This document shows positions 23,882-38,881 of a stretch of 64,000 nt of DNA, piece by piece. Location: the sequence record LC788710.1. The stretch is one strand, 5' to 3'. The notes under the pieces were generated by a model. The model saw only the letters and a list, made by a program, of their open reading frames with translations. It made no database searches and was not told the DNA's origin. Each line of letters opens with the position of its first letter. Within the stretch, counting starts at the first letter, position 1. Both the position numbers and the translations under genes were made by a program. Origin of the DNA: Escherichia coli phage Wa28.

Positions 23882-23957
23882 TGGTAGTTAGTAGTGGATT
23901 TGAACCACTGTAGTCGCTCCGTATGAAGGAGGTGCATAACCACTCTGCCAACTAACT
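23882..23957 (-). tRNA. tRNA-Met-type (anticodon CAU)
   Basis: Hand-folded: T-arm AGTGG/ATTTGAA/CCACT, anticodon loop gives codon ATG, encoded CCA. Confidence 0.7.
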
Positions 23958-23963
23958 ATAATT

Positions 23964-24039
23964 TGGTACTCCGACTTGGGATCGAACCAAGATTTGACGA
24001 TTATCGGTCGCCTGTTCTAACCGTTTGAACTATCGGAGC
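23964..24039 (-). tRNA. tRNA-Ile (GAU), atypical C33
   Basis: Hand-folded cloverleaf; loop sense CCGAUAA. Confidence 0.55.
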
Positions 24040-24040
24040 A

Positions 24041-24334
24041 TTACATCATTTCGTCTAAGTAAGAAGTATACTGGTATTTAGCTTCTCCAGTTTTATCTAC
24101 TTCGACTTCTGTTCTAGGTACTTTTCGTACCAGACCGTGAATCATCTTGTACTGAATAGACTTAGATGGTTCGTGATCTTTTGGAAATACTTGTTTAACC
24201 GTTACTACTTTGAAGCCTTCACGAGGTGTTAGCACAACAACTTGATCACCTTCTTTTATTTTCCAAGACTCAGGAAATTCGTAAGTGTAGCGTTGACCAC
24301 CCGTTTGGAACACGACAGAAAGATAACGTTTCAT
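24041..24334 (-). CDS. hypothetical protein (97 aa)
   Basis: ORF downstream of promoter. Confidence 0.5.
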   Translation of the reverse strand: MKRYLSVVFQTGGQRYTYEFPESWKIKEGDQVVVLTPREGFKVVTVKQVFPKDHEPSKSIQYKMIHGLVRKVPRTEVEVDKTGEAKYQYTSYLDEMM

Positions 24335-24364
24335 TTGGTTTCCCTCTCATTAATTTATGTAAAT

Positions 24365-24393
24365 ATTATAACAAGAAATAAGAGAGAAGGCAA
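24365..24393 (-). promoter_or_regulatory. early promoter TTGCCT-17-TATAAT
   Basis: Motif read. Confidence 0.6.
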
Positions 24394-24408
24394 ATGAATT
24401 TTTAAATT

Positions 24409-24483
24409 TGGTGCTCCCACCAGGAATCGAACCCGGTTCAGATGCTTACAAGGCAACTGCATCGCCAGCAATGCTTTAGGAGC
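24409..24483 (-). tRNA. tRNA-Thr (UGU)
   Basis: Hand-folded cloverleaf. Confidence 0.65.
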
Positions 24484-24650
24484 AATAAACCCGTTATTTC
24501 AACGGAATTTCTTTTTCAAATACAGGAGACTTATCAGACATTACTGTCATAGCCAACTGCTGTAGAAATTCGAATGAGAGTTTTAAACGTTCTTCACCCA
24601 ACTCAACCTCAACACACTTCATTTGCTTATCAACCTTTAGCTTTAGATTA

Positions 24651-24872
24651 TCAGCCCTCTTCGGGTTCTCTTTGCTCAGCTATTGCTAGCCAGTCTGGTA
24701 AAAGAAACTTAGTACGAAATTCTTCATATGTTTCTTCTGGATGAAAGCTATAGCCTTGCTTTTCATCATTTAATAAAACCGAACCGTCTTCCTGTTCATA
24801 AGCTCGGTATGTTTCACCAATAATTAAAACTCGTCTATTGGGGTTTTTATTACGAAACTCAAAAACGTCCAT
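24651..24872 (-). CDS. hypothetical protein (73 aa)
   Basis: ORF. Confidence 0.45.
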   Translation of the reverse strand: MDVFEFRNKNPNRRVLIIGETYRAYEQEDGSVLLNDEKQGYSFHPEETYEEFRTKFLLPDWLAIAEQREPEEG

Positions 24873-24887
24873 AACGTTTCCTTAAGT

Positions 24888-24962
24888 TGGTGCGGGATAC
24901 GAGAGTCGAACTCGTGTCTACTGGTTGGAAGCCAGTTATTCTAGCCACTGAACTAATCACGC
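24888..24962 (-). tRNA. tRNA-Gly (UCC)
   Basis: Hand-folded; perfect T-arm and anticodon stem. Confidence 0.75.
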
Positions 24963-24968
24963 ATAAAT

Positions 24969-25044
24969 TGGCTGGAGAAGGAGGAATCGAACCTACCATT
25001 AACGGAGTCAAAGGCCGTTGTGCTAACCGTTACACTACTCTCCA
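24969..25044 (-). tRNA. tRNA-Gln (UUG)
   Basis: Hand-folded. Confidence 0.65.
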
Positions 25045-25050
25045 AGTATT

Positions 25051-25126
25051 TGGCTGGGATGCCACGGATCGAACGTGGAACCTTCGGAGTCAGAGGCCGA
25101 CGATCTGCCAATTGATCTACATCCCA
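25051..25126 (-). tRNA. tRNA-Gln (CUG)
   Basis: Hand-folded; exact acceptor pairing. Confidence 0.7.
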
Positions 25127-25133
25127 ATAATTT

Positions 25134-25334
25134 TTATTCTACAGGAACCGTGGCAATTGGATCTGGTTCTTCTAGACGTTTACCATTATGGTCAACACGA
25201 ATAATACCACAACCTTCACAGATTACAACAGCACCATAGCCTTCTTTAACTTCGGCTTCTGTAATCAGACCAGAAAGATCACCAGTATCTTTGCCCCACA
25301 TATCGATAGAGCATTCTTTGCAGAAATCAGCCAT
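25134..25334 (-). CDS. small zinc-ribbon protein (66 aa)
   Basis: CKEC...CEGC. Confidence 0.45.
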   Translation of the reverse strand: MADFCKECSIDMWGKDTGDLSGLITEAEVKEGYGAVVICEGCGIIRVDHNGKRLEEPDPIATVPVE

Positions 25335-25358
25335 ATTTTAGTTCCTGTATAAGTTAAT

Positions 25359-25433
25359 TGGTGCATCCTCAGGGAATCGAACCCCGATCGTAAAGTTCGT
25401 AGCTTTACATTCTTTCCGTTGAAATAAGGACGC
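25359..25433 (-). tRNA. tRNA-Arg (ACG)
   Basis: Hand-folded; perfect anticodon stem. Confidence 0.7.
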
Positions 25434-25438
25434 ATATT

Positions 25439-25515
25439 TGGGGTGGCTAGTGGAATTCGAATCCACATAGGCCTGATTCACAATCAGGATCATTAACCAA
25501 TTATGATATAGCCAC
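25439..25515 (-). tRNA. tRNA-His (GUG)
   Basis: Hand-folded; 77 nt consistent with extra 5' G. Confidence 0.8.
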
Positions 25516-25896
25516 AATTGAATACTATTAGGGGATGATCAGTCCTCCATTTGGCCGTCTAAGGTACCAAAGTTAGTCATTCTGCGCACAGGTTTTTCTC
25601 CTGATTCTTTATTGCGAATGCTCTCTAATAATACTCAATTGTGGCGGCTCTCCGAAACTCTTCTACTCTAGCCTTAGCAGCTTACTCCCGAACGCATGTC
25701 GGGAAAGTCTTACTAAGAACATCAAATAGCACCGTTACACTTTGAGCCATTAATGTATCAAGAAGCAGAAGGACTTGAACCTTCACGAGATAGACCATTT
25801 ATCTCAGCCTCGTTTTCGGGTATCTTATGAGGAGTGGATGTTCCCCTTACGCCCTTTAGGAAGCCCCGTCTACCGATTCCGGCATACTTCAAGATT

Positions 25897-25986
25897 TGGC
25901 AGAAGATAATGGAGTCGAACCATCACCGTATCACTACAGCGGGCCGGTTTTCAAGACCGGTTACGTACCACTACGTCCTATCTTCT
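25897..25986 (-). tRNA. tRNA-Ser (UGA), type II
   Basis: Hand-folded; long variable arm. Confidence 0.7.
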
Positions 25987-26213
25987 AGTATTTGTTCTAC
26001 TTCTTTTCGAAGATCTTCTGGATTATCATGATAGGTTGTTTGCCATACATAAATAACTCCAGTATCACATGCTTTATCAAATATTTCTCGCTCAGGAAGT
26101 TTCATGCCCATTGCGTACTTGATATGAAACTCTAAAGCTTGCTTACTAGGGAATGTATGACGCAAGAAAAACTTATCATTAACTAAATCCAACATCATAA
26201 TCTTGACTTTCAT
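25971..26213 (-). CDS. hypothetical protein (80 aa)
   Basis: ORF. Confidence 0.45.
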   Translation of the reverse strand: MKVKIMMLDLVNDKFFLRHTFPSKQALEFHIKYAMGMKLPEREIFDKACDTGVIYVWQTTYHDNPEDLRKEVEQILEDRT

Positions 26214-26234
26214 TTATATTCCCTATTAGTTGTT

Positions 26235-26327
26235 TGGCGGAAGAAGAGAGATTCGAACTCTCAAGCCTGCTTTAACAAGTCAGCCACTTTCCAAGCGGTT
26301 TTCGTCACCTAATCGATTTGCTCTTCC
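26235..26327 (-). tRNA. tRNA-Ser (GGA), type II
   Basis: Hand-folded; variable-arm hairpin; one weak anticodon-stem pair. Confidence 0.55.
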
Positions 26328-26501
26328 GTAGATCTCAGGATTAAATCATAAACTTCATTAGCAGATACTGGAAGTATGAGATTATACATCTTTTGGTCAT
26401 ACCTCTGACCATACTCTATAAACACATACTCTTTAGTTAATGTATTAACAGCTAACCAGATATCAGTTATAGGAGTTTTCATCATGAGTTAATCCAATGT
26501 T

Positions 26502-26582
26502 TGGTAGGGATGGAGGGACTCGAACCCACACCCGAAGACTAGAACCTAAATCTAGCGCGTCTGCCAATTTCGCCACATCCCC
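26502..26582 (-). tRNA. tRNA-Leu (UAG)
   Basis: Hand-folded; perfect anticodon stem; 9-nt variable region. Confidence 0.6.
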
Positions 26583-26589
26583 ATTTTAT

Positions 26590-26808
26590 TTAGTTAGAAA
26601 TAAATAGTAACCCTGCAACAATGGAACCTATGCCACTGAATACCATTATCAGCATAGCTTCTAAGCTGATAAAGCGGACGTTATATGGAGCGCCCCAAGA
26701 ATAATCAGTAAAGAAAGTTTTCTTTTCTTTAGCTAAATCTTTAATAGTTCTAAAATAGATAGCTAGTGCTAAAGCTACAAGAACTACAGAGGCTGCTAAG
26801 AATACCAT
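26590..26808 (-). CDS. small membrane protein (72 aa)
   Basis: ORF. Confidence 0.4.
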   Translation of the reverse strand: MVFLAASVVLVALALAIYFRTIKDLAKEKKTFFTDYSWGAPYNVRFISLEAMLIMVFSGIGSIVAGLLFISN

Positions 26809-26827
26809 ATTATTTCCTTAATTTGTT

Positions 26828-26903
26828 TGGTGGAGTCACTCAGAATTGAACTGAGTTCCACTGCTTGCAAGGCAGTAAGTTTAACCAAATAACCTATGAC
26901 CCC
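26828..26903 (-). tRNA. tRNA-Ala (UGC)
   Basis: Hand-folded; G3-U70 in acceptor stem. Confidence 0.75.
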
Positions 26904-26908
26904 GAATT

Positions 26909-26987
26909 TGGTGGAGAATAAGAGATTCGAACTCTTCTGATATCCTCGGTGCAAGCGAGGTGTCCACTCCAAGCAGACCCATTCCCC
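26909..26987 (-). tRNA. tRNA-Ala (UGC), second copy
   Basis: Hand-folded; G3-U70 present. Confidence 0.6.
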
Positions 26988-27249
26988 AAAATCTTTAAGT
27001 TTACTAAGGCTATTAGCTCGGTGTGCGTATTACCCTCAGACATTAGCCAGTAGAGGATAACCGCTCTTCACAAACCCGATACACTATTCAGTTGCCGCTG
27101 AATCTAGTGGACTAATCTAGAACTTATTGCAAAGTATCCCCCGCCATTAAGGGTCTACTTGCAATTGTGCTTTTTGGCAGCCAGTCCTAGGTCGAGCTAA
27201 TACCTTAGTGAACTTTGATGAGGATTTCTCCTCATCAATTTATATAAAT

Positions 27250-27278
27250 ATTATAACAAGAAATTAAGCATCAAGCAA
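27250..27278 (-). promoter_or_regulatory. early promoter TTGCTT-17-TATAAT
   Basis: Motif read. Confidence 0.7.
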
Positions 27279-27630
27279 GTACATTTTTAGCGATTTCTTG
27301 TATTTCCTTAACGTCACTAACGAAAAGGTAATCAGAGCTTCCAGAGTGCATACTCTGCATAACCACACCATCCTCTGGTGCATCTTCTTTCAAAGTAATA
27401 CCTAACCAGAACTCGGCAAAACTAGGTGTTACCTCACCTTGACTTGCCTTGAATACATCGGCTTCTGTGATCTCCTGACCAGTAGAGAGTCCCATGTACG
27501 GTACGTTCAGATCAATATCTTTGTAAAACTCAGCTAGATCTTGTTCGAAGTCCCAACCTTTAGAGATAGCGAACTCCATTGTTACATGACCGAAATAGCC
27601 TTGAACCTTGCTTGATAATTGCATTTGCAA
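27271..27630 (-). CDS. hypothetical protein (119 aa)
   Basis: ORF. Confidence 0.55.
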   Translation of the reverse strand: MQMQLSSKVQGYFGHVTMEFAISKGWDFEQDLAEFYKDIDLNVPYMGLSTGQEITEADVFKASQGEVTPSFAEFWLGITLKEDAPEDGVVMQSMHSGSSDYLFVSDVKEIQEIAKNVLA

Positions 27631-27649
27631 TTCCTTATTTTGAGTTAAT

Positions 27650-27723
27650 TGGTACTCGGTGATAGAATCGAACTATCGCAACCGCCGTGTAAAGACGGGG
27701 TTCTCCCATTAAACTAACCGAGC
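27650..27723 (-). tRNA. tRNA-Val (UAC)
   Basis: Hand-folded. Confidence 0.65.
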
Positions 27724-27727
27724 AATT

Positions 27728-27805
27728 TGGTGGATTGCCTGGGATTCGAACCCAGAACTGACGGATTAAAGGTCCGCTACTCTTATCCGGTTGAGCTAGC
27801 AATCC
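27728..27805 (-). tRNA. tRNA-Lys (UUU), atypical C33
   Basis: Hand-folded; exact acceptor pairing, GCUC D-stem; loop sense CCUUUAA. Confidence 0.6.
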
Positions 27806-28269
27806 AATTTTTCTACTAATAATTTAAAAGCATCTAGTACAGGTACTTCAAACCATTCCCCGGATACTCTGTAGTCTTTGAGAAGATTATGTAACTCTTT
27901 CTCCGTACGTCTTTTATCTGACGAAAATCTGAAATGGTGTAGCTTGTAGTCTCTATTAGGTGAATAGGTTTGATAACTTGCTAACCTCTCATTTACATCT
28001 ATAGTCATACCTATTTTATACATGCCTGGCCATGCGGGATTACCGATTACATATACAAAACCTTCCGTTATAGGTATTTTATGTTCTCTTTTGTATTTTA
28101 AGAGATTTAAAGCTGCCATTCGATAACAGAATTTAAATTCTGAAGTTTTTAACTTACCCTCTTTACCAGAAATTTCATTATATTTGCTCATATAAGCTCT
28201 TATAAGCTTATCATCTATAATAAAATTATCAGGAAGGTTTAAGGCAGCTAAAACTTTATTAATTAGCAT
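27796..28269 (-). CDS. T5orf172-domain (GIY-YIG-like) protein
   Basis: GFVYVIGNPAWPGMYKIGMT...YQTYSP motif. Confidence 0.65.
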   Translation of the reverse strand: MLINKVLAALNLPDNFIIDDKLIRAYMSKYNEISGKEGKLKTSEFKFCYRMAALNLLKYKREHKIPITEGFVYVIGNPAWPGMYKIGMTIDVNERLASYQTYSPNRDYKLHHFRFSSDKRRTEKELHNLLKDYRVSGEWFEVPVLDAFKLLVEKLDC

Positions 28270-28444
28270 AAACTTCCTTAATAGAGTAGACTTTCAAGTA
28301 AGGATGATTAATACCAAATTCCGCCATTACTTCATTTTCATCTTTACCATAATGGGCTAGTGGATACTTCTTACGATCTTTACTAGAACGTAAATCACTT
28401 ACTTTTAAACGAAATAATTTCATTTCGAAATCCTTCTATTAAAT

Positions 28445-28522
28445 TGGAAGCGGGTGCAGGAATCGAACCTACCTCTTTCTAGCTTATGAGACTAGCGATC
28501 TCTACCAGAGATCTAACCCGCA
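28445..28522 (-). tRNA. tRNA with CAU anticodon (Met, fMet or Ile2)
   Basis: Hand-folded. Confidence 0.6.
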
Positions 28523-28528
28523 ATTGTT

Positions 28529-28606
28529 TGGTCTCCGTGGGAGGATTTGAACCCCCGACCCTATCGCCCCAAACGAAACGCTCTAGCCAAACTGAGCTAC
28601 ACGGAG
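28529..28606 (-). tRNA. tRNA-Pro (UGG)
   Basis: Hand-folded; exact acceptor pairing. Confidence 0.65.
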
Positions 28607-28638
28607 AATATTCTTTGTTAACTCACTTTATAAAATAT

Positions 28639-28667
28639 ATTATACAGAGAATTAAGCTAAATAGCAA
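28639..28667 (-). promoter_or_regulatory. early promoter TTGCTA-17-TATAAT
   Basis: Motif read. Confidence 0.65.
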
Positions 28668-28921
28668 CTACATTTTTTAATAAATTTACTTATTGCGTAG
28701 GCCACCTGGAGGGTTCAAGCCCCACGGCTGACAAAGAAGTTTGCGAGACTTCTCTTAAACGCCAGAATAGACCCGCCGATCTATCGGAACCTACTCAATA
28801 AGTAAACTTTCGTTTACCTACACCTACCTGGTCGGGAGGATTTTCAGCGACTAGAACCGGCCGGAAACTCATCGCCTTGTTTATCTAGGAGTCCGTTCTC
28901 TAGGAAGCAGAAACCTAAATT

Positions 28922-28995
28922 TGGTGCGGTCGGAGGGAATCGAACCCTCAACTTCTGGTTGGCAACCAAAAATTATACCTTTTAACTACGAACGC
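28922..28995 (-). tRNA. tRNA-Gly (GCC)
   Basis: Hand-folded. Confidence 0.7.
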
Positions 28996-29001
28996 ATAAT
29001 A

Positions 29002-29130
29002 AGTCAATCTAGGCAGGACTTGAACCTGCTATCACTTGTGCGGATTTACGAGAACCATTCTTTCACTCGAATCGAACGAGCTTCTACCCTCGGCAAGCTG
29101 GTGTCCCCTCTCCACCACGCTAGAATGATA
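29002..29130 (-). other. two degenerate tRNA-like elements (T-arm-like GCAGG/ACTTGAA/CCTGC and CTCG/AATCGAA/CGAG) lacking full cloverleaf
   Basis: T-arms found; no pairing acceptor or canonical anticodon arm. Confidence 0.3.
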
Positions 29131-29208
29131 ATTAGTGCCTGCTCCTTTGAATCAAGAAGTCCACCCCGGACTTTGGGTCTTTGCAGTACATCACGCTGCT
29201 CTGATGTT

Positions 29209-29285
29209 TGGTACACCCACTAGGACTTGAACCTAGAACCTACCGCTTAAGAGGCGGTAGCTCTAACCAATTGAGCTATGGATGT
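29209..29285 (-). tRNA. tRNA-Lys (CUU)
   Basis: Hand-folded; perfect anticodon stem. Confidence 0.7.
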
Positions 29286-29291
29286 ATAATT

Positions 29292-29366
29292 TGGCGGTAC
29301 TAAGGGTAATCGAAACCCTACCTCTCCCGTGACAGGGGAGTATCCTAACCGTTAGACTATAGTACC
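29292..29366 (-). tRNA. tRNA-Asp (GUC)
   Basis: Hand-folded; exact acceptor pairing. Confidence 0.75.
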
Positions 29367-29938
29367 TTTAACTTTTTAAGTTCTTTAGGATTGCCTCCTA
29401 AAGAAGTGTATCTTTTACGCAACCCATTATCTGAATAACTTAACTTTCTCCCTGCACCTGACCAGCCTAGCTCTCTTACTGTAACCTCGATTATTTCTTT
29501 AGTTATAGAGATATCTTTTGGTTTATGTGAAGAGCACTCCTGACATTTTTCAGCTTTTAAAGAAATAGCTTTACCACAATCCTTACAACAATTATCATGG
29601 TTTAGTTTACTAAATCCTTTATCTTTTAAAGTCTTTTCTAGATGCTGCTCTTTTGTGAGCACTTGTAAGTTATTAAGACCCCAATAAGTAATGTCTGTGT
29701 TAATATGGTCAACTTCTAGTTCAGAGTCTAGACTTGGTAATTTCTTAAATGCACATGCTAAAATCCTATGTACACCGGTATTTCTCTGTTGACCATTTTT
29801 ATGGAGACGTATAGATAAGTATCCGTAATTACTGGTTATTTGGGTTAGTATTTTGTTTGATTTGATACTAAATACTAACCCATCCAAACTTACTAAGTAC
29901 TCCTCAAACCCTGGAATGGGTAAGGATATTCCGTGCAT
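29357..29938 (-). CDS. HNH homing endonuclease
   Basis: NGYLSIRL...HRILACAF...VDHIN motifs; Cys cluster. Confidence 0.65.
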   Translation of the reverse strand: MHGISLPIPGFEEYLVSLDGLVFSIKSNKILTQITSNYGYLSIRLHKNGQQRNTGVHRILACAFKKLPSLDSELEVDHINTDITYWGLNNLQVLTKEQHLEKTLKDKGFSKLNHDNCCKDCGKAISLKAEKCQECSSHKPKDISITKEIIEVTVRELGWSGAGRKLSYSDNGLRKRYTSLGGNPKELKKLKVL

Positions 29939-29941
29939 AAT

Positions 29942-30127
29942 TTACTCAGTTTTGAGTTTTTCGATAGCTTCCTCAACCTCTTTTAGAGCTTCACGACGCT
30001 CTACTTGACCTTGAAGTTCTTCAAGAAGTTCAGCTTTCAGAGCCTTAATAATATTACCACGAACCTTAATATTATTAATCAGATTATCACGATCAGCTTC
30101 TAGTCGAGCAATTGCACGAGTTGTCAT
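29942..30127 (-). CDS. small coiled-coil protein (61 aa)
   Basis: ORF. Confidence 0.4.
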   Translation of the reverse strand: MTTRAIARLEADRDNLINNIKVRGNIIKALKAELLEELQGQVERREALKEVEEAIEKLKTE

Positions 30128-30230
30128 ATCTATTTCCTCAGTTGTTAATGAAAAATGGTATCTGTGACTGAATTCGATATCAGCAATGATAGCTGGTTGG
30201 CTACCGGTTTACTTAACTCTACACAGAATA

Positions 30231-30313
30231 TGGCGGGCCGTGTAGGATTCGAACCTACGTTGTCTTTCGACATGGATTAACAGTCCACCGCCAAACCGCT
30301 TGGCTAACGACCC
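30231..30313 (-). tRNA. tRNA-Asn (GUU) with unusually long (13-nt) variable region
   Basis: Hand-folded. Confidence 0.55.
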
Positions 30314-30320
30314 TAAAATT

Positions 30321-30396
30321 TGGACGACCGCATGAGATTCGAACTCACATAAGGAGGTTTTGCAGGCCTCCGCCTAAGCCATTCAGCCAACGGTCG
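30321..30396 (-). tRNA. tRNA-Cys (GCA)
   Basis: Hand-folded. Confidence 0.6.
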
Positions 30397-30574
30397 ATTT
30401 ATCTTGCTTTTCGAGATTAGTAAACTCTAGATCTTTAGAATGTCCTATAGATCTAGCATAATAGCCATCTCCAGCATCGTAGCCTGATTTACCGCACTCA
30501 CACATCTTAAACTCTCTATAATGAGTGAAAATATGTTCAGAACCACAACACTTAAATTTAACTAACATTTTCAT
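30383..30574 (-). CDS. small zinc-ribbon protein (63 aa)
   Basis: CCGSEH...CECG. Confidence 0.4.
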   Translation of the reverse strand: MKMLVKFKCCGSEHIFTHYREFKMCECGKSGYDAGDGYYARSIGHSKDLEFTNLEKQDKSTVG

Positions 30575-30813
30575 TTAACACGCTCCGGTAAATCTTCGAG
30601 TTTATATTGAGTAGCCACATTAGCAGCATCTAGTAACAAACCCATATGTTTAAGAATCCTAGTGATAGCCTCGCCTTCTGCTTCTTCTACAAAAGTGCGT
30701 AGTTGAATGAAGTCAATACCCCCATCCATACCAGAGAAAATGTTTAGTAAGCGAAGCATTACCAGCTTACGTTCTTTCAATTCTTGTTCTGTCATGTTGC
30801 TTCTCCAGTTCAA
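30571..30813 (-). CDS. hypothetical protein (80 aa)
   Basis: ORF downstream of promoter. Confidence 0.45.
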   Translation of the reverse strand: MNWRSNMTEQELKERKLVMLRLLNIFSGMDGGIDFIQLRTFVEEAEGEAITRILKHMGLLLDAANVATQYKLEDLPERVK

Positions 30814-30824
30814 TTTATGTAATA

Positions 30825-30853
30825 ATTATACAGAACTTTAAGCGGTTAAGCAA
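30825..30853 (-). promoter_or_regulatory. early promoter TTGCTT-17-TATAAT
   Basis: Motif read. Confidence 0.65.
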
Positions 30854-31124
30854 CTACATTTTTTAAGAATTTGATGCCTTTCTTTTTCTTCTTATATTTC
30901 CACGTTAACGGGTTCTGTCGATTATGAACGCTTGAGATCTTTGTCTCGTCAAAGTTCTTCAAAACCATGTAATCACAGGCCAACTGTTCTAGTGGGATGT
31001 GATCTCCATCAAAAGCATAAACATAAGGCTGTTGACTAGCACGATAATGATAGACTTTGTTAATTCTGCGTTTCAGTGACTTATCCGCACAGTAAATAAA
31101 GAAGTTTTCAGGATGCATCAGCAT
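30846..31124 (-). CDS. hypothetical protein (92 aa)
   Basis: ORF. Confidence 0.45.
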   Translation of the reverse strand: MLMHPENFFIYCADKSLKRRINKVYHYRASQQPYVYAFDGDHIPLEQLACDYMVLKNFDETKISSVHNRQNPLTWKYKKKKKGIKFLKNVVA

Positions 31125-31135
31125 CTCCTTAAAAT

Positions 31136-31210
31136 TGGTGCACCCTGTTCGTATCGAACGAACCTCTCAAGCTCTTCAGGCAAGCGCTAATCCATCTCAG
31201 CTAAAGGTGC
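31136..31210 (-). tRNA. tRNA-Phe (GAA), weak anticodon stem
   Basis: Hand-folded; two U-U mismatches in anticodon stem. Confidence 0.5.
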
Positions 31211-31216
31211 AAATAT

Positions 31217-31293
31217 TGGCAAACCTACTAGGACTCGAACCTAGACCGTACGGTTTTGGAGACCGACATGCTGTCCAGTAACACTCTAGGAAT
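31217..31293 (-). tRNA. tRNA-Trp (CCA)
   Basis: Hand-folded; acceptor stem 5/7 paired. Confidence 0.55.
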
Positions 31294-31301
31294 GCAGAAA
31301 T

Positions 31302-31378
31302 TGGCGTCCTGTGCGGGGATCGAACCCGCAAACCCCACCTTGAAAGGGTGGTGACTTTACCAGTTTGTCTAACAGGAC
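31302..31378 (-). tRNA. tRNA-Glu (UUC)
   Basis: Hand-folded; all stems perfect. Confidence 0.8.
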
Positions 31379-31860
31379 TTAAATTGTTTATTGGATAGAT
31401 TGTTAAACTCGGAAAGTATGTCGTCTACACTTCTGTCTAACACTACCCATTCATTAAGCCGTTCAGGAAAGCTATTATGAAGCATTTTCTCCGCTTCTCT
31501 AGCATTAAACCAAAATGACCAATGTATTAACTTATAATCACGTAAGGGAGAATAAGTTTGGTAATTTCCTAATCTTGTTTTAGGATCAGAAGACATACCA
31601 ATTTTTACATAGTTATCCCACGCTGGGTTAGTTATTGCATAAATAAAACCACAGCTGGATTTTTCTCCAATACTTTTGTTATACTTGATAAAAGATAGGG
31701 CAGATAACTTCAAGCTATATCGACGATTACTATCGCGACCAAAGTTAGCTGTACCAAATGTGAGGCTTTCTAATATTAGATCTTTGTTTATATCGGCGGG
31801 TGAACCCAACTGTATAATACCTCTATTTGCAGCTTCTTGAATTATCCGATCAATATACAT
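31369..31860 (-). CDS. T5orf172-domain (GIY-YIG-like) protein
   Basis: GFIYAITNPAWDNYVKIGMS...YQTYSP motif. Confidence 0.65.
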   Translation of the reverse strand: MYIDRIIQEAANRGIIQLGSPADINKDLILESLTFGTANFGRDSNRRYSLKLSALSFIKYNKSIGEKSSCGFIYAITNPAWDNYVKIGMSSDPKTRLGNYQTYSPLRDYKLIHWSFWFNAREAEKMLHNSFPERLNEWVVLDRSVDDILSEFNNLSNKQFKSC

Positions 31861-31877
31861 ATCCTTTACCTTTAATT

Positions 31878-31965
31878 TGGTGGGCGTTAATGGAGTCGAA
31901 CCACTCGAGTCGCAATGACCAGGGATTTACAATCCCCTCCGCTACCACTTACGGAATAAACGCCC
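31878..31965 (-). tRNA. tRNA-Tyr (GUA), type II
   Basis: Hand-folded; long variable arm. Confidence 0.7.
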
Positions 31966-32094
31966 ATATTTAGAAGTATTCAAATACTTGTTTAAACACT
32001 TTTAAATATGTTTTCCAAATTAGATATCTATTATATCAAGTTTTGAAGGACTGAGCAAGTCAAATTTTAAAGAACTTGCTCAGTGCTACATCAG

Positions 32095-32370
32095 TTACTC
32101 GAAGCTAGGAGTGACGCTCAGTTTGAATGGAAGCTCGAACACTTCTTCATAATCATCATTGAGCGTAATTACACGACCTTCTAGCTTAGTCATGGTGATT
32201 TCGATATCAGCCCTTGCATCAGGAGCCATACCAGCTTCCACACATTTAGCTTTAACTTCCGGCAGAAGTTCTACGTCGTAGAAATAAAGCCATTCAATCT
32301 CACCTTCCCAGCCACCCCAGGATTTACAAACAGCACTTTCAACACCAGTTGCAGTAACACGTTTTGACAT
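32095..32370 (-). CDS. hypothetical protein (91 aa)
   Basis: ORF. Confidence 0.5.
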   Translation of the reverse strand: MSKRVTATGVESAVCKSWGGWEGEIEWLYFYDVELLPEVKAKCVEAGMAPDARADIEITMTKLEGRVITLNDDYEEVFELPFKLSVTPSFE

Positions 32371-32400
32371 TCGTTAACTCCTTCATCAATTTATATAACT

Positions 32401-32430
32401 ATTATAACAGAAATCTTAAGTAAAAAGCAA
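32401..32430 (-). promoter_or_regulatory. early promoter TTGCTT-18-TATAAT
   Basis: Motif read. Confidence 0.6.
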
Positions 32431-32460
32431 GTACATTTTTAAAATTTCTGCTTGGAGGAG

Positions 32461-32733
32461 TTAAACTCCTGATTCTTCAGCCAGATCAAGCCCAACCAAC
32501 GTGATTGCCATAATAGCCGCGCCATGTTCTTTCTCCCCTAGCTCTTTGGCTTGAGCGAGAATATTGAGGAATTGCTTTTGAAAATCTGCAACTTCTTCTG
32601 TCATGCCTGCTTCAGCAATAATTCCTTTAAGCATAAAGCGTTGTGCCGTAATTTCAGGATTAGCCATTTGTTTTCTCCAGTTATTTAGAATGTAAGCCAA
32701 ACTTAGGATCATAGCGATCGTAAGTCGTACCAT
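32461..32733 (-). CDS. hypothetical protein (90 aa)
   Basis: ORF. Confidence 0.5.
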   Translation of the reverse strand: MVRLTIAMILSLAYILNNWRKQMANPEITAQRFMLKGIIAEAGMTEEVADFQKQFLNILAQAKELGEKEHGAAIMAITLVGLDLAEESGV

Positions 32734-32818
32734 TAGTTGAAGCCTTAATGCTATGGAAACGACAGTACATAAATTTACGTAGTGCTTTCTTAATAGCTTT
32801 CATTTTATTTCCTTAATT

Positions 32819-32895
32819 TGGTAGGGGTGGTGGGATTCGAACCCACAAAACCTGAATTTTAAGTCCAGTACCTATGCCAATTCGATTACACCCCC
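32819..32895 (-). tRNA. tRNA-Leu (UAA), short variable loop
   Basis: Hand-folded; D-arm poorly paired. Confidence 0.55.
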
Positions 32896-32903
32896 ATGTA
32901 ATC

Positions 32904-33257
32904 TTAGCGAATCTCTAAACCCTGGAAATATCGAGGGAATGGAGAGCCAACTTCAAAATTGATGCCCCAATTAAGTTCAACGAGTTCAGATTTATTAAGA
33001 TCTAGGCCATTACCTTCAAAGATATAGCCGTAAACCGCAGGAAACATAGCTGCTAGATCTTCCATATCGGAATGAGCATTGTGTTCTTCACGGAACTGCT
33101 CAAACTCTTCAAAGAACTTTTCTAGGAAGAACTCAGGTACGATGAACGTTACCACATCAGTAGAATCATCGGTACGATACACCGTAGCTTGGAACAAGCC
33201 AACACCTAAAAGGTTTATTGCCGGAGTAGTAAAAATATCCATCTTAGCCTCGCTCAA
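32904..33257 (-). CDS. hypothetical acidic protein (117 aa)
   Basis: ORF. Confidence 0.5.
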   Translation of the reverse strand: MSEAKMDIFTTPAINLLGVGLFQATVYRTDDSTDVVTFIVPEFFLEKFFEEFEQFREEHNAHSDMEDLAAMFPAVYGYIFEGNGLDLNKSELVELNWGINFEVGSPFPRYFQGLEIR

Positions 33258-33429
33258 TGTCTAGACAAATTGCATATTCAGGGTTGATACCAGTACCTTT
33301 ACATGTAGGACATTCCCATTCTCTACAGAAAATACCCCCCGGTTCTGCATCATCCTGCCTACCACCACCATGACAGTCCTTACACCGACATTCTTCTAAT
33401 GCTTTCTTCATTTCATAGAATCTAGACAT
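33244..33429 (-). CDS. small zinc-ribbon protein (61 aa)
   Basis: CRCKDCHG...CREWECPTC. Confidence 0.45.
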   Translation of the reverse strand: MSRFYEMKKALEECRCKDCHGGGRQDDAEPGGIFCREWECPTCKGTGINPEYAICLDIERG

Positions 33430-33446
33430 ATAGTCTCCTGGTTAAT

Positions 33447-33524
33447 TGGTGGCTCCCGGAGGATTCGAACCTACCTACCTTTCGCTTATGAGGCGACGGC
33501 TCATACCAAATGAGCTTGAGAACC
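33447..33524 (-). tRNA. tRNA with CAU anticodon (Met, fMet or Ile2), third copy
   Basis: Hand-folded; anticodon loop identical to 28445-28522. Confidence 0.6.
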
Positions 33525-33529
33525 AAATT

Positions 33530-33623
33530 TGGAGGAAGATGCCAGACTCGAACTGGCACACCGTGTCTCCACAGCTACTGGCTGTTTAGCAAACAGCTCC
33601 CTTACCTTTAGGGTTAATCTTCC
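33530..33623 (-). tRNA. tRNA-Ser (GCU), type II
   Basis: Hand-folded; perfect anticodon stem, exact acceptor pairing. Confidence 0.7.
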
Positions 33624-34077: not shown

Positions 34078-34770
34078 TTATTTGTTAACGCGTACAAAGT
34101 ATCCTTTATAAGCTCCAAGAATAGAGTTGCCTAAGAATACTAGCCACATTGCTAGGATTGCGTAAGATGCACCTGTAGATTGAGCAGTTACAAGCCAAAT
34201 GTACACAGTACCAATGTTAATAGCAATCCAAATCAGCCATTGTTCAGCATATTGTTTGACCATAAGCCACATAGCAATCACACTACCAACCGCAGTAAAT
34301 GCATCCAACATTGGGAATGGATCAGCCGTAGTAGCAAGGAAACTACCATAACCTAACGTGGCTACTGCTAAAATCCCTAGAGTCAGCAAAGCTTGAGCTT
34401 TTGTCAGAACTTTAGTTGGAACATCCGGTAGATTACTTGGCTTATTTTTATGCCACAAGTACATTCCGTAGAACTGCATAGGAACGTAGTACAATAGGTT
34501 TAGTGCTGCGTTACCATAAAGATCAGCATTTAGAGCTGTAATACCGTAGGTCAGAACACCTACCAAACCCCAGACATAGTTGGAAACACGTCCTTTTGCA
34601 ACCAGAATAACACAAACCACATTGGTTATTGCAGTAGCCCAATCTAGAGCTGTACCATTATAGTTTGCTAAACTAATGAAGACAACCGCTATGAACAGCC
34701 ACAGATATTCCAGAGGTTTCCAGTTTTTAAAGTCATTTACGAGATAGTTAGTCATATTAAAACTCTCCAA
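34078..34770 (-). CDS. pnuC: PnuC-family nicotinamide riboside/NMN transporter
   Basis: Multi-TM; EQWLIWIAINIGTVYIW resembles E. coli PnuC ENWLLWVIINVISVVIF. Confidence 0.75.
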   Translation of the reverse strand: MESFNMTNYLVNDFKNWKPLEYLWLFIAVVFISLANYNGTALDWATAITNVVCVILVAKGRVSNYVWGLVGVLTYGITALNADLYGNAALNLLYYVPMQFYGMYLWHKNKPSNLPDVPTKVLTKAQALLTLGILAVATLGYGSFLATTADPFPMLDAFTAVGSVIAMWLMVKQYAEQWLIWIAINIGTVYIWLVTAQSTGASYAILAMWLVFLGNSILGAYKGYFVRVNK

Positions 34771-35830
34771 CGTTAAAGTGATGAATCAGCCAGTCTACTG
34801 CGTTTACTGCTTCGTCCATACGAACTTTGTAGTCCGGAGAGTCGATGTAAACAGTACGCCCTTCAGGGAACTGATTTGGAAATTCTTTCTTCATCTGCTC
34901 GAACAGTTCAGAAGTAATTGAACGATCGGAGTTAATACGTAAACCATCATCTACCCACTTGACAGTAGGCGCTAGAACAATTACTAAATCGTAATGTTCT
35001 TCTTTTGCAATTGCTGTAACCACAGGGTTCTTACTATGTTCATAAAGTCTGTGGTAGAACTCAGTAATAAAAGCATTTGTATCCACAAACATGATCTTAT
35101 TTGCAGTACGTTCTGCTTCAAACTCTAGCTCTTTGTGTCTGAACGCAATTTTACTATAGTCTTCGCTGGTAAGCAGATTTTCGTTACCAACTAGATCAAC
35201 TTCACAATACGTTCGGCCATATTCTTCTACCCACGAAGTGTTGTATAGCTTCGCAAGGTATTTTGTTAAAGTAGTCTTTCCTGAGCTTTCAGTCCCAATG
35301 ATTACAACCTTACGCACGTAATCTTTACGAGCTACGCTAGGAAGAAACTCCCAATACTTCATAAGATCATTACGAATCATTGTAGCTGAGATTGGAACAC
35401 GAGTCCGATCAGAATCTACAATATAATGACCAAACTTCGGCAGATATTTCTTATATTCTGCATCATAGTCTAGTTCGCTAGAGAAAATGGTGATCTCAGG
35501 CAAATGTCCGTAATTTTCATTAAGGATTCTAGCATATTCCGGCCAACCATTCGGATATTCAGGAATATCATCTTCAATAATGTACTCTACCGAAATGTGC
35601 TCAATATCCGCGTAAGTTTGTTCTAACCAACGAAGTCGATTCTTTAACTGTAATACTTCCTGATCACGAGTGTTCTGCTTATCCAGCCAACGATTATCAT
35701 GACTAACTACAACAATAACTCGTTCACACATAGTTGCTGCTGTGTTTATTAGGTTAATATGACCACGCGTTAATGGCGCGAACTTACCAATTACTAGACC
35801 AGTCTTAATCATATTTGATTCCTCTCTCAA
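34757..35830 (-). CDS. nadR: NadR-like bifunctional NMN adenylyltransferase / ribosylnicotinamide kinase
   Basis: N-terminal GKFAPLTRGH nucleotidyltransferase motif; central GTESSGKTT P-loop. Confidence 0.75.
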   Translation of the reverse strand: MREESNMIKTGLVIGKFAPLTRGHINLINTAATMCERVIVVVSHDNRWLDKQNTRDQEVLQLKNRLRWLEQTYADIEHISVEYIIEDDIPEYPNGWPEYARILNENYGHLPEITIFSSELDYDAEYKKYLPKFGHYIVDSDRTRVPISATMIRNDLMKYWEFLPSVARKDYVRKVVIIGTESSGKTTLTKYLAKLYNTSWVEEYGRTYCEVDLVGNENLLTSEDYSKIAFRHKELEFEAERTANKIMFVDTNAFITEFYHRLYEHSKNPVVTAIAKEEHYDLVIVLAPTVKWVDDGLRINSDRSITSELFEQMKKEFPNQFPEGRTVYIDSPDYKVRMDEAVNAVDWLIHHFNVGEF

Positions 35831-36083: not shown

Positions 36084-37028
36084 TTACTTGTTACGCATAT
36101 CCATGATCATTTGACCATCGTAGCCAGTACCAACAACAGTCTGCGGTACACCACCTTGGTATTTTTCAGCACGAAGCATTTCAACTTCCAGCTGCTTCCA
36201 ACGAATCATTTCAGGAGTAATGGTACGTTGCAGCGCGGCGTTAGCTTCAGCTTCTTTCTTAGCTGCGTACAGTTTAGCATCTGCGTCACGTTCGTTAGCT
36301 ACTGCCATGTTTTCACGAGCAGAACGATCAGCTTCAGCTTGCTTAACTTTCTGCTGTGCTTCTTGTTCAACACGAGCCAATTCAGCTTTAGCGGCGTTAA
36401 CTTGTTCTTCACGAACTTTTGTGTTTTGTACCTGTTCCATGATTACAGGTGGCAGAGTAATATCCTGAAGGAATACTTGCTTAACCGTGTAACCATAAGG
36501 ACGCGCGTACTCTTCTACTTCTTGCTGAATAGCAGTTTGCAGTTGAGCCTGAATCTTAGCGTCGAACAGATCTTGTGCTTTTGGTACAGACTTACCAAAC
36601 TCACGAATCGTAGATAGCATCTTCTCTTCAACGTACTTGTTCAGAGCTTGATCCTGAGTACCTGCGTTAACACGGTTCATAGGAGCTTTAGCACCATCAA
36701 ACTGCAACATAACGGTAATGTCAACAGTGGACTTAAACTTATCCTGGCTAGGAACCTGGAGTTTATCCAGTTTCATAGAAATATCTTTCGTACTAAAAGT
36801 ATCAAAAGAGGCGAATGGGTTGACAATATGGAACCCCGGCAATACAGGATTAGGACTAACTTTACCCAGGAAAGTCTGAGTTTTAACCGTACCGTCCTGA
36901 ACAACTGTATAGGAATTGAGAGCCAGAATAAGAGCGCCAAGACCAACTACAGCACCAACACCCCAACGTTTAATAGTACGAATTACTTTTTGATCGGAAG
37001 TCAGTTCTTTAGTGTTTTTAGTAAACAT
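36084..37028 (-). CDS. SPFH/band-7 (prohibitin/HflC-like) membrane protein
   Basis: N-terminal TM, SPFH core, Ala/Glu/Lys-rich coiled-coil tail. Confidence 0.75.
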   Translation of the reverse strand: MFTKNTKELTSDQKVIRTIKRWGVGAVVGLGALILALNSYTVVQDGTVKTQTFLGKVSPNPVLPGFHIVNPFASFDTFSTKDISMKLDKLQVPSQDKFKSTVDITVMLQFDGAKAPMNRVNAGTQDQALNKYVEEKMLSTIREFGKSVPKAQDLFDAKIQAQLQTAIQQEVEEYARPYGYTVKQVFLQDITLPPVIMEQVQNTKVREEQVNAAKAELARVEQEAQQKVKQAEADRSARENMAVANERDADAKLYAAKKEAEANAALQRTITPEMIRWKQLEVEMLRAEKYQGGVPQTVVGTGYDGQMIMDMRNK

Positions 37029-37039
37029 ATATTTCCTTA

Positions 37040-37240
37040 TTATTTAGAAGAGTTAGCTACTACAGTTACTTTAGTTGCAGAAATAAACAGGCTAGCATCC
37101 ACAGCAAATTCAGGAGCTTTGATATCTCCGTTATGAAATATGACTATACCGGAGACTACTTCAAATGCTAGCGCTGTAACATCGGTGGTATTTACTTGTG
37201 AATGTTCACCTACTACTTTTACTATATATCGTGTTTTCAC
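37040..37240 (-). CDS. small protein, possible NfeD-like partner of SPFH
   Basis: 66-aa ORF immediately upstream of SPFH gene; beta-rich composition. Confidence 0.35.
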   Translation of the reverse strand: MKTRYIVKVVGEHSQVNTTDVTALAFEVVSGIVIFHNGDIKAPEFAVDASLFISATKVTVVANSSK

Positions 37241-37266
37241 TTTATTTTCCTAGCAGTTAATAAAAT

Positions 37267-37341
37267 TGGCCGAGGTGACAGGATTCGAACCTGCATAAAG
37301 GAATTTAGAAGACTCCTGCCTATCCCTTAGACTACACCCCG
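37267..37341 (-). tRNA. tRNA-Arg (UCU)
   Basis: Hand-folded. Confidence 0.65.
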
Positions 37342-38195
37342 TTTAGGTATTTTTAAGAACTCTTATAAAAGCTCTTAAAGATACCAGACGGTAGGTAGGG
37401 TCAGCCCCCTCAGATTAAGCTCTGCAGCCCTTCCGTCAGACAATATCTTCCAGTTTAAGTCAGGGTGACTTTGTGGTTATGTTCTCCGTATGTGAAGAAC
37501 TCGGTTAGGCTTAGGTCATGACTCCCAGCCTACTGCTGCCGCTCAACAGGAATTATCGCGAATTACCTGTACTATTGGGCACCATTAGTGACATCTCTCA
37601 TGTCAGCGTTTCCCACTCTCATATTCACGCGGTCTGTTAGAATCGCACCTCCGATTTTCGATGCGAAGCTGGATGCCTAGTCTCAGGTTAAACGGGGCAC
37701 ACACTAGGCAGTGATCCCGAGTTCCGAGTTTGGTTGAGGCCGTCAGGTTTCCTCGTGGTTTAGCTGTTTCGATTCTAACCTAATACTGATCAGGTGGCGT
37801 ACCTCCTGAACCGTCATAGTATGTACTCCAGCAGCGAATGCTTATCCGGTATAAGCCCGAGTTATCTGATTCTTTCCGACCGCAGGATTCGAACCTGCAT
37901 CTTCCACCAGTTACGGTTTGATATTACCGTTTATACTAGGACGGCAGTGTTATCACATAAGTCAGTTCGACACCCCACTAACATAAACTAGAGAAGAGTT
38001 TACGAGATTTCGGGACAGCTCCCGAGTTTTCCGCAGATTTTCAGTTCCCTATCAATAGCAATAAGCGTTAGCTCGTAGCCTCTCTCAGAGTACTTACTAG
38101 TCTCCAACTCACCGACTCTATTCAGTGGAATAGCTATCCTAGTAGGAATCACTAAACTCACTCAGCGTAATCGGCTCGCTGTTCTCTAATTTATG
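37342..38195 (-). ncRNA. about 850-nt ORF-free, hairpin-rich region transcribed from promoter at 38201-38229; candidate large structured RNA / leader
   Basis: No ORF >60 aa on minus; contains tRNA-like T-arm at 37882-37898. Confidence 0.35.
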
Positions 38196-38200
38196 AATCT

Positions 38201-38229
38201 ATTATACAGAATTTTGAGGCGTTTAGCAA
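38201..38229 (-). promoter_or_regulatory. early promoter TTGCTA-17-TATAAT
   Basis: Motif read. Confidence 0.65.
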
Positions 38230-38237
38230 ATCAATTT

Positions 38238-38681
38238 TTAATTAAATTCGCCAGCAACCTGAGCAGCAATGCCACCGTCGTAACGACCAGGAAACTCTTC
38301 CTTAATCGCTTTCATCAGCATACCTTTTGTAATCCCAGGGTTCAACTTAACTAATTCTGCAAAGTATTTGCGAATCTCAGAATCAGATAACTGAGGCGGC
38401 AGATACTGTTGTAGCCATTTGTTCAGTATATACTCATACTGAGCAGACTGCAAGCTATAATTATCAAGGTCTTGACCGTGAAGTTTAGCTTTCGTCTGAT
38501 TAATGCTTTTCAGTTGAGCTTTTAGATAAGATACAAACTGTTCAGAAGTAATGAAGTCTTTATCAACACGCTGAAGATCTCCGATTATGGTCTGGTAGCT
38601 TTTAGCTACTTCTTTATCAGAACCATCAACCTTAGATTCCTGCAAAGCCCTACGCAAAACATCTAGAATATTCTCTTCCAT
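38238..38681 (-). CDS. GatB/YqeY-like domain protein (147 aa)
   Basis: Helical protein; weak resemblance to YqeY family. Confidence 0.45.
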   Translation of the reverse strand: MEENILDVLRRALQESKVDGSDKEVAKSYQTIIGDLQRVDKDFITSEQFVSYLKAQLKSINQTKAKLHGQDLDNYSLQSAQYEYILNKWLQQYLPPQLSDSEIRKYFAELVKLNPGITKGMLMKAIKEEFPGRYDGGIAAQVAGEFN

Positions 38682-38881
38682 TATTTAATTCCCAGTGCTT
38701 GGTTAAAAGATTGTTCTGTCATAACTGCCGAGACTTTAGCGAAATCAAACTTCTTAGGGTTTGTAGTAATTTCAGCAACGTTAGTAGTTTTAACTGTTTT
38801 CGTAGTACGGATACCACGAGTATTAACACCAATAATTACAACTGATTTCATATTTCGCTTCCTCTCATTAATTTATGAAAG

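Follow-up and report, generated by a model that had tools for sequence, protein, structure and literature searches.

RNAX of T5-Like Phages: Comparative Evidence for a Large Structured RNA with Exchangeable Modules and a tRNA-Like Element

Introduction

GOLLD and ROOL are among the largest RNAs of bacteria and phages, and cryo-electron microscopy (cryo-EM) has shown them to form RNA-only cages. GOLLD is phage encoded near islands of transfer RNA (tRNA) genes, measures ~800 nucleotides (nt), and combines a conserved 3' with a variable 5' region, sometimes with tRNAs in the linker; its palindromic loops covary as symmetric kissing loops (PMC12286853). Here we analyze RNAX, a locus comparable to these RNAs in size, setting, and domain logic, in a 64,000-nt stretch of DNA from Escherichia coli phage Wa28 (record LC788710.1), referred to throughout as the window. 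A sequence-only reading of this stretch had proposed a large structured RNA, similar to the ornate phage RNAs beside tRNA genes, at positions 37342–38195.

Smaller or partial parallels are also known. An L-shaped tRNA mimic with a T-/D-loop elbow is part of a larger stable RNA in the tRNA-like domain of transfer-messenger RNA (tmRNA), in the bacterial Y-RNA-like YrlA, and in the mascRNA of MALAT1, and is a possible substrate of ribonuclease P (RNase P). The species 1 and 2 RNAs of phage T4 (rnaC and rnaD) are stable RNAs that lie in the phage tRNA cluster and are coprocessed with the tRNAs.

The closest known counterpart is found in phage T5 itself. The records of T5 (AY543070) and BF23 (NC_042564) list the homologous stretch as a misc_RNA, gene rnaX, with the remark "RNAX, stable RNA with unknown functions"; it sits between promoter P16-17 and tRNA-Arg(UCU), abutting the latter, and the same label is used in DT571/2. 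A literature search for RNAX or a T5 stable RNA found no descriptive account in the library searched. Because rnaX is annotated in T5, the transcript itself was known before; the novelty lies in the evidence for a large, ornate, family-wide structured RNA with exchangeable modules, an embedded tRNA mimic, and a GOLLD-like organization.

Results

The Window Encodes a Counterpart of T5 rnaX

The window derives from a T5-like phage of the genus Epseptimavirus (family Demerecviridae), and the 1.1 kilobases (kb) around RNAX are 99.6–99.9% identical to the Epseptimavirus phages Seabear and Stitch (Salmonella) and GreteKellenberger (Escherichia). The order and strand of the locus are those of T5: a P16-17 counterpart, RNAX, tRNA-Arg(UCU), and a gene of the SPFH/Band_7 family. 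Aligned with the annotated rnaX of T5 and BF23, the window shows blocks of 79–91% identity, with a middle domain that can be aligned only in part. We conclude with high confidence that this element is the Epseptimavirus version of T5 RNAX, a structured noncoding RNA of ~850 nt. Its boundaries are as follows:

38201–38229, minus strand: sigma-70 promoter TTGCTA-17-TATAAT, with 10 of 12 matches, annotated as P16-17 in T5 and BF23
37342–38194, minus strand: RNAX transcript body, from homology to the annotated misc_RNA rnaX and a folding z score of -3.09
37267–37341, minus strand: tRNA-Arg(UCU), which abuts RNAX and whose 5' processing site would set the RNAX 3' end

The leftward promoter proposed in the sequence-only reading is thus the counterpart of an annotated one, and it is the only sigma-70-like site in 36900–38800. 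The RNAX 5' end is inferred at ~38194, 7 nt past the -10 box (the T5 annotation would place the start ~7 nt further in), and the 3' end is placed where RNase P would cut to form the 5' end of the tRNA-Arg. Downstream follow tRNA-Arg(UCU), an open reading frame (ORF) of 66 amino acids (aa), and the Band_7/SPFH gene, with no terminator-like site found on the minus strand between RNAX and these genes; the transcription unit would run on into tRNA-Arg and the SPFH genes, as had been suggested. The GC content is also raised as reported, at 0.46–0.50 over 37300–38050 versus 0.33–0.41 in the flanks. None of 20 shuffles folded as well as the minus-strand transcript, whereas the plus strand reached a z score of only -1.72.

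The promoter and first transcribed bases (AUAAAUUAGAGA) closely resemble the classical strong T5 early promoters such as P_N25. The same promoter with its first ~15 transcribed bases (AUAAAUUAGAGA; 38182–38240) is repeated at other early promoters of related loci (individual loci are cited by L numbers), including L001 6830–6891 and 4670–4723. In RNAX, this shared initial transcribed sequence serves as the 5' strand of a helix, P1.

In several GenBank records the region is presented instead as a cluster of small-protein genes, with hypothetical proteins of 53–65 aa. ORFs of 40–65 aa do exist and are annotated, for example, in GreteKellenberger and Seabear. The claim that no ORF exceeds 60 aa stands for the RNA strand, where the largest between promoter and tRNA-Arg has 53 aa, but not for the plus strand, which has one GTG-start ORF of 65 aa (37794–37991). 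None of the small ORFs of the RNAX region is conserved in relatives, each being truncated, shifted, or absent in close relatives, and the part of the 65-aa ORF that is conserved simply lies antisense to the tRNA-like element described below. We consider a protein-coding explanation scarcely credible; the homology to rnaX, the lack of a conserved ORF, and the compensatory changes in many helices bear out the proposal of a large structured RNA.

RNAX Is Widespread in T5-Like Phages and Modular

Similarity to 37342–38200 was found in 527 phage records at 75–100% identity, nearly all of them Demerecviridae of Salmonella, Escherichia, and Klebsiella. From IMG/VR, GenBank phages, and metagenomes we gathered ~45 distinct versions of RNAX, which span 638–1290 nt from inferred start to terminal hairpin. 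It is present in Tequintavirus and Epseptimavirus, in Sugarlandvirus as a version of ~1270 nt, and in Hongcheonvirus DU_PP_V, and occurs in rearranged form in Proteus phage PM135 (Novosibvirus) and in Providencia phages. Parts of RNAX are 84–100% identical in Sugarlandvirus, versus 70% for the neighboring hydrolase gene. At RNAX, most other records are blank, list small hypothetical proteins, or name a tRNA (-Sec, -Ser, -Pro, or "OTHER") or a pseudo-tRNA.

Several records need care in their reading. PP355768.1, GU169904.1, OR848534.1, and MG065655.1 include some that appear chimeric or mislabeled; a 261-kb "Straboviridae" Klebsiella phage record contains a Sugarlandvirus RNAX locus; and records named "Staphylococcus phage SA1," "Listeria phage," and "Campylobacter phage" match T5-like or FelixO1-like sequence.

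Outside the T5-like phages, the motif GGGGTGTNGAA...ACACTGCC was found in 11 non-T5 contigs of IMG/VR, none with any other RNAX motif, and these are therefore chance matches. A leader-pattern search of IMG/VR returned T5-like genomes only, and all eight metagenome matches have RNAX-type sequence. A search for similarity to complete E. coli genomes, which would point to mimicry of a host RNA, found none.

MAFFT was unable to align the modules that are swapped between variants. The layout that emerges from their comparison is P1 with an optional 5' module, the tRNA-like element, a hairpin, the middle core, and the 3' domain; RNAX is shown to be a conserved 3' domain and middle core with exchangeable peripheral modules. 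Positions on the RNA strand are given as q, with window coordinate = 38241 - q.

The 3' Domain Is Maintained by Compensatory Changes

The predicted structure of the 3' domain is delimited as follows:

37347–37619, minus strand: conserved 3' domain of ~273 nt, from RNAalifold and pair counts
37613–37616 with 37473–37476, minus strand: closing helix GUGG/CCAC around four hairpins, from RNAalifold
37347–37384, minus strand: terminal hairpin of 16 base pairs (bp) next to tRNA-Arg, from RNAalifold and pair counts

The closing helix is predicted to be followed by a hairpin AGUCA-CCC-UGACU, a three-way junction, and the terminal hairpin. The fold, in which two further hairpins join the closing helix and its four hairpins, was calculated with RNAalifold on 17 diverse sequences and compared with controls in which the 3' partners were slid by 1–3 columns, and with 500 shuffles. 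Across its 54 pairs, 96.8% of cells hold standard pairs (36–45% in the slid versions), 18 pairs are changed on both sides (1–4 in the slid versions), and none of the 500 shuffles reached the covariation score. T5 (L028/L002) has a 74-nt insertion in this domain at RNAX positions ~545–620, duplicating the AGUCACCUUGAC-UAAACUGGAA motif.

P1, the 5' Module, and the Middle Domain

Helix P1 brings together the inferred start of the transcript and an internal strand, and encloses the 5' module:

38182–38194, minus strand: P1 5' strand AUAAAUUAGAGAA, the first 12–13 nt, pairing with 37983–37995
37983–37995, minus strand: P1 3' strand UUCUCUAGUUUAU, pairing with 38182–38194
37996–38181 (q60–245), minus strand: optional, variable 5' module in the P1 loop
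38163–38181, minus strand: hairpin P2, CAGCG-AGCCGAUUA-CGCUG, whose loop pairs with a downstream AGUCGG to form a pseudoknot

The P1 pairing is retained in every variant, through a compensatory change in DU_PP_V (AUAAAUUAAAGA/GCUUUAAUUUAU) and with wholly different sequences in PM135 (UAUUAAAUCGGA/UACGGUUUAAUG). In T5, a 4-nt loop joins the two strands into a simple hairpin, and the 5' module, which is missing in T5 and six other variants, is therefore an insertion in the P1 loop. The P2 loop and its target covary as CCGAUU/AGUCGG, CCGAUU/AAUCGG, and GCAGA/UCUGU. In phages H8 (L007 3442–3970) and IrmaTschudi (L086 1315–1797), an HNH/AP2-type homing-endonuclease ORF replaces the 5' module and P1 right behind the RNAX promoter, and the remaining RNAX is retained.

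The segment between the tRNA-like element and the 3' domain includes the following:

37834–37873, minus strand: conserved linker AAGAAUCAGAUAACU and hairpin GCUUAU/AUAAGC
37620–37833, minus strand: middle domain, with helix GCUG/CAGC around a variable insert and then hairpins, from comparative analysis
37720–37771, minus strand: middle core CGAAACAGCUAAACCACGAGGAAACCUGACGGCCUCAACCAAACUCGGAAC, 52 nt, 100% identical between Epseptimavirus and Sugarlandvirus

The stem of the hairpin that follows the tRNA-like element takes at least six different sequences across variant types between conserved flanks, and the GCUG/CAGC helix becomes GCUA/UAGC in DU_PP_V. These two helices thus covary across genera, as do P1 and the P2 pseudoknot, and the comparative check that the sequence-only reading had called for finds pairing conserved in the 3' domain, the tRNA-like element, P1, the pseudoknot, and several hairpins.

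The region could also be a nonfunctional mosaic of decayed tRNA genes and homing-endonuclease scars, passively transcribed in a recombination-prone tRNA region. Insertions, replacements, and homing-endonuclease ORFs in relatives are of the kind such a history would leave, and the tRNA-like element resembles a degraded tRNA, being labeled a pseudo-tRNA in some records. However, at least 10 helices are maintained across genera by compensatory changes, a 52-nt block is 100% identical between genera, and loop motifs are invariant on varying stems, so that we regard a decaying mosaic as very improbable.

Further repeats occur within the RNA. The middle-core hairpin loop CCUGACGG (37742–37749) repeats CUGACGG, the 5' strand of the outer stem of the 3' three-way junction (37433–37441), and may compete for its partner CCGUC(U)GG at 37385–37392, as an alternative pairing or an intermolecular swap. 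Two motif pairs also resemble each other: AGUGGGG...CUAAACCAC brackets the tRNA-like domain, and AGUGGGAAA...AUAACCAC brackets the 3' domain (37580–37616 vs. 37955–37980; 37473–37480 vs. 37755–37762). This suggests internal duplication or alternative long-range pairings, a choice on which covariation cannot decide because the bases are invariant.

Two Palindromic Loops in the 3' Domain

Two hairpin loops of the 3' domain are candidates for symmetric contacts between RNAX molecules:

37516–37523, minus strand: hairpin loop AGUCAUGA (palindrome UCAUGA / GUCAUGAC), candidate symmetric kissing loop, from its invariance
37556–37561, minus strand: loop palindrome UCGCGA (hairpin 37546–37570), second candidate kissing loop, from palindrome switching

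The first loop is the same in every variant type and sits on no fewer than five different stems, and AGUCAUGA occurs once in the window. The second changes from one palindrome to another: its counterpart is CGCGCG in T5, CUCGAG in L005 and L083, CCGCGG in Sugarlandvirus, and GUGCGCAC in S126 and IrmaTschudi, and PM135 has UCGCGA on an unrelated stem. In OLE and GOLLD, loops that switch between palindromes are taken as evolutionary support for symmetric intermolecular kissing loops, and other symmetric loops are invariant; the same pattern is used in arguing for such loops in ROOL (PMC12286853).

The Embedded tRNA-Like Element

Two features lie between the P1 3' strand and the conserved linker:

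37946–37974, minus strand: hairpin GGUGU...ACACU, just 5' of the tRNA-like element, with pairs invariant in 15 variants
37874–37945, minus strand: tRNA-like element with acceptor, D, and T arms and a short "anticodon" arm, from an Rfam tRNA match of 29.3 bits and covariation

The sequence-only reading had noted a T-arm without a full cloverleaf (37882–37898). The T-arm is real, but it belongs to a nearly complete cloverleaf in which the acceptor, D, and T arms covary and the anticodon arm alone is degenerate. The score against the Rfam tRNA family (RF00005) lies just above the gathering score of 29 bits, and relatives score 26.6–38.3 bits; ARAGORN calls the elements of T5 and of DU_PP_V but misses that of the window. 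Here the "anticodon" arm is a 3-bp stem with the 6-nt loop GUAACU, where a tRNA would have a 5-bp stem and a 7-nt anticodon loop. The acceptor has G1.A72 and U5.U68 mismatches and is followed by AGA, not CCA, and the D-loop GG and the T-loop are kept. Invariant sequences flank the element.

Over 15 sequences including DU_PP_V, 91.4% of cells are paired versus 28–54% in slid controls, and six pairs show double changes versus 0–2. The U5.U68 mismatch of the window is A-U in T5 and U-A in BF23, C6-G67 becomes U-A in L024, and pairs 4-69 and 7-66 are both changed in DU_PP_V. The "anticodon arm" varies most: it is a 5-bp stem with a 4-nt loop in DU_PP_V and a long irregular hairpin in most Sugarlandvirus versions (L031–L033, L064, L095, L100) and in L098, and the inner stem of this long hairpin covaries (GGGGA/UCCCC vs. 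GGAGAU/AUCUCC). In L004, L079, and L005, a plain hairpin on the same basal stem replaces the whole element, and PM135 has a hairpin at its position. Because these replacements occur in otherwise intact versions, the element is dispensable or exchangeable; it is a tRNA-shaped decoration, neither a decoding tRNA nor the heart of RNAX.

Neighboring Genes and the tRNA Context

An array of 28 tRNA genes lies at 23882–33623 on the minus strand, with RNAX and tRNA-Arg(UCU) ~3.6 kb beyond it on the same strand. The array includes two copies of tRNA-Ala(UGC), three of tRNA-Met(CAU), and two each of tRNA-Gln, -Lys, -Gly, -Leu, and -Ser. At 34757–35830 (minus strand), a 357-aa protein with cytidylyltransferase-like and AAA_28 domains has a NadR-like organization (NMN adenylyltransferase/ribosylnicotinamide kinase).

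Directly upstream of RNAX lies a YqeY-like gene of 147 aa (38238–38681, minus strand), with a Pfam YqeY/GatB-tail match of 25.4 bits, below the cutoff of 27. It looks tRNA related. We found relatives in 461 records of phages, essentially all of them T5-like, and the labels given to the gene vary between "recombination-related exonuclease," "tRNA amidotransferase," and "YqeY domain protein." Klebsiella Sugarlandvirus phages have RNAX without this gene, and Vibrio phage Thalassa has the gene within its tRNA array with no RNAX-sized gap beside it; together they rule out the YqeY-like protein as an obligate partner of RNAX.

These observations bear on the proposal that RNAX is a tRNA mimic or decoy, whose tRNA-shaped module, held on a stable scaffold, would titrate or recruit a host or phage factor able to recognize the elbow or the acceptor of a tRNA, such as RNase P, an enzyme that modifies T-loops, a defense nuclease directed at tRNAs, or the phage YqeY-like protein. 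It would fit the conservation and covariation of the acceptor, D, and T arms, including the D-loop GG and T-loop, the known role of T5-family tRNAs in countering tRNA-cleaving defenses, and the position of a YqeY/GatB-tail-like gene directly upstream in most genera. Yet the module gives way to a plain hairpin in L004, L079, L005, and PM135, its missing anticodon loop makes it no decoy for anticodon nucleases, Sugarlandvirus and Thalassa separate RNAX from the YqeY-like gene, and the conserved 3' domain is left unexplained. As an account of RNAX as a whole, a decoy seems doubtful to us.

At the other end, one or two small ORFs (~0.5 kb) separate the RNAX terminal hairpin from tRNA-Arg in L005, L029, L030–L033, and L035, with the hairpin remaining on the RNAX side. 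With a FelixO1-like phage, the locus has no more in common than tRNA-Arg and a hairpin of leader type. In Felixounavirus UAB_Phi87 (L102 1682–1730 and 1021–1075), hairpins UCUUUAAGRGCUUU...AGAGUCUUUAAAGAUU stand directly 5' of tRNA genes; they resemble the RNAX terminal hairpin and may represent a shared pre-tRNA leader element.

RNAX might act only in cis, as a leader or processing platform for the maturation, yield, or timing of tRNA-Arg(UCU) and the translation of the SPFH operon, and be functionless once cut off. It invariably precedes tRNA-Arg(UCU), the two share a strand, and no terminator separates them; the FelixO1-like phage has a similar leader hairpin before its tRNA-Arg. Against this, 640–1290 nt with conserved multihelix domains go far beyond the needs of a leader, ORFs intervene between RNAX and tRNA-Arg in Sugarlandvirus, L005/L029, and PM135 while the terminal hairpin stays with RNAX, and the GenBank note speaks of a stable RNA. 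A purely cis-acting role is in our view unlikely.

Discussion

Our best reading, drawn by analogy, would place RNAX among the large ornate phage RNAs beside tRNA islands, of the kind of GOLLD and ROOL. A strong early sigma-70 promoter would produce one transcript of RNAX, tRNA-Arg(UCU), and the SPFH operon, and cleavage by RNase P at the 5' end of the tRNA, expected from established RNase P biology, would free RNAX. P1 at the 5' end and the 16-bp hairpin at the 3' end would protect the released RNA, which would therefore be "stable," as in the GenBank note. RNAX could then self-associate through AGUCAUGA and UCGCGA, the palindromic loops in its 3' domain, and most variants would display or tether the tRNA-shaped module, with a putative effect on the phage tRNA or translation economy during infection.

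Taken whole, as a structured noncoding RNA of T5 type that is also a self-associating scaffold, this explanation is in our estimate narrowly probable. Self-association in the manner of GOLLD and ROOL, considered by itself, is a tentative proposal that we think possible rather than probable, because the palindrome pattern was noticed post hoc, a 6-nt palindrome is expected by chance at 0.03–0.3 per loop, such palindromes are not enriched across RNAX but depleted (9 vs. 13 expected), and the tRNA T-loop UUCGAA is likewise palindromic without a kissing role. A full cage-type assembly would be less likely still.

Besides these four points, others weigh against the GOLLD/ROOL-like reading. In L029 and L082 the second loop keeps CGCG only, and the module order of PM135 differs and is hard to fit to a single rigid architecture. 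The status of RNAX as a stable RNA derives here solely from the GenBank note. The Rfam check proposed in the sequence-only reading came out negative: a search of the window and of seven variant loci against Rfam 15 gave tRNA matches only, both at the gathering score and at a cutoff of E ≤ 10, and RNAX is not a detectable member of a listed family. The models for GOLLD, ROOL, tmRNA, RNase P RNA, group I and II introns, and riboswitches gave no match in these loci, nor did ARAGORN find a tmRNA; an identity with any of these families was rejected on these tRNA-only matches. Rfam 15 holds no family for RNAX. The link to GOLLD and ROOL is one of analogy only, as there is no Rfam match besides tRNA; at the level of architecture, the proposed likeness to ornate phage RNAs beside tRNA genes fits.

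The bolder form of this reading would make RNAX a third, independent class of phage self-assembling RNA beside ROOL and GOLLD, forming dimers or higher oligomers through the invariant UCAUGA loop and the CG-rich loop that switches palindromes, carrying a tethered tRNA-shaped module, and released from a pre-tRNA transcript. We put it forward as speculation with rather poor prospects. Should RNAX work like GOLLD and ROOL, the purpose of giant phage RNAs beside tRNA islands would become directly testable: over 500 T5-like phages with sequenced genomes carry it, among them those of the classical, genetically tractable T5/E. coli system; their hosts are E. coli, Salmonella, and Klebsiella, and phage and host genetics, defense collections, and deletion mutants are at hand for them. 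Even otherwise, it is a large, conserved, and probably abundant RNA of a model phage that has stood in GenBank for two decades as "function unknown" and is routinely misannotated as hypothetical proteins or odd tRNAs.

Comparison with Known Systems

The nearest relatives, the RNAX of T5, BF23, and DT571/2, share locus and strand with the window, at ~80% identity in the 3' domain and ~88% in the tRNA-like region. The window differs from T5 in its ~185-nt 5' module, which T5 lacks, and in a middle domain that is built differently, and it lacks the 74-nt duplication in the 3' domain of T5.

The species 1 and 2 RNAs of T4 differ from RNAX in being small, ~120–140 nt. Compared with tmRNA, YrlA, and mascRNA, the tRNA-shaped module of RNAX is internal instead of being built from the RNA termini, some variants can do without it, and it comes without a tmRNA match.

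ROOL (RF03087) is likewise a large ornate phage or prophage RNA near tRNA islands with a variable linker, but there is no covariance-model match, and it interweaves its 5' and 3' parts, in contrast to the modular build of RNAX. GOLLD (RF01998), whose name refers to lake and Lactobacillales origins and which is also reported from tRNA arrays of Mycobacterium, differs in sequence and helices, which are unrelated, with no covariance-model match at E ≤ 10; its linker holds true tRNAs in some members, whereas the RNAX element is tRNA-like, and its 14-mer cage, with kissing loops and A-minor contacts, was seen by cryo-EM. What RNAX and GOLLD have in common is large size, a phage tRNA array nearby, and a conserved 3' part joined to a variable or optional 5' part with a tRNA-shaped module between them.

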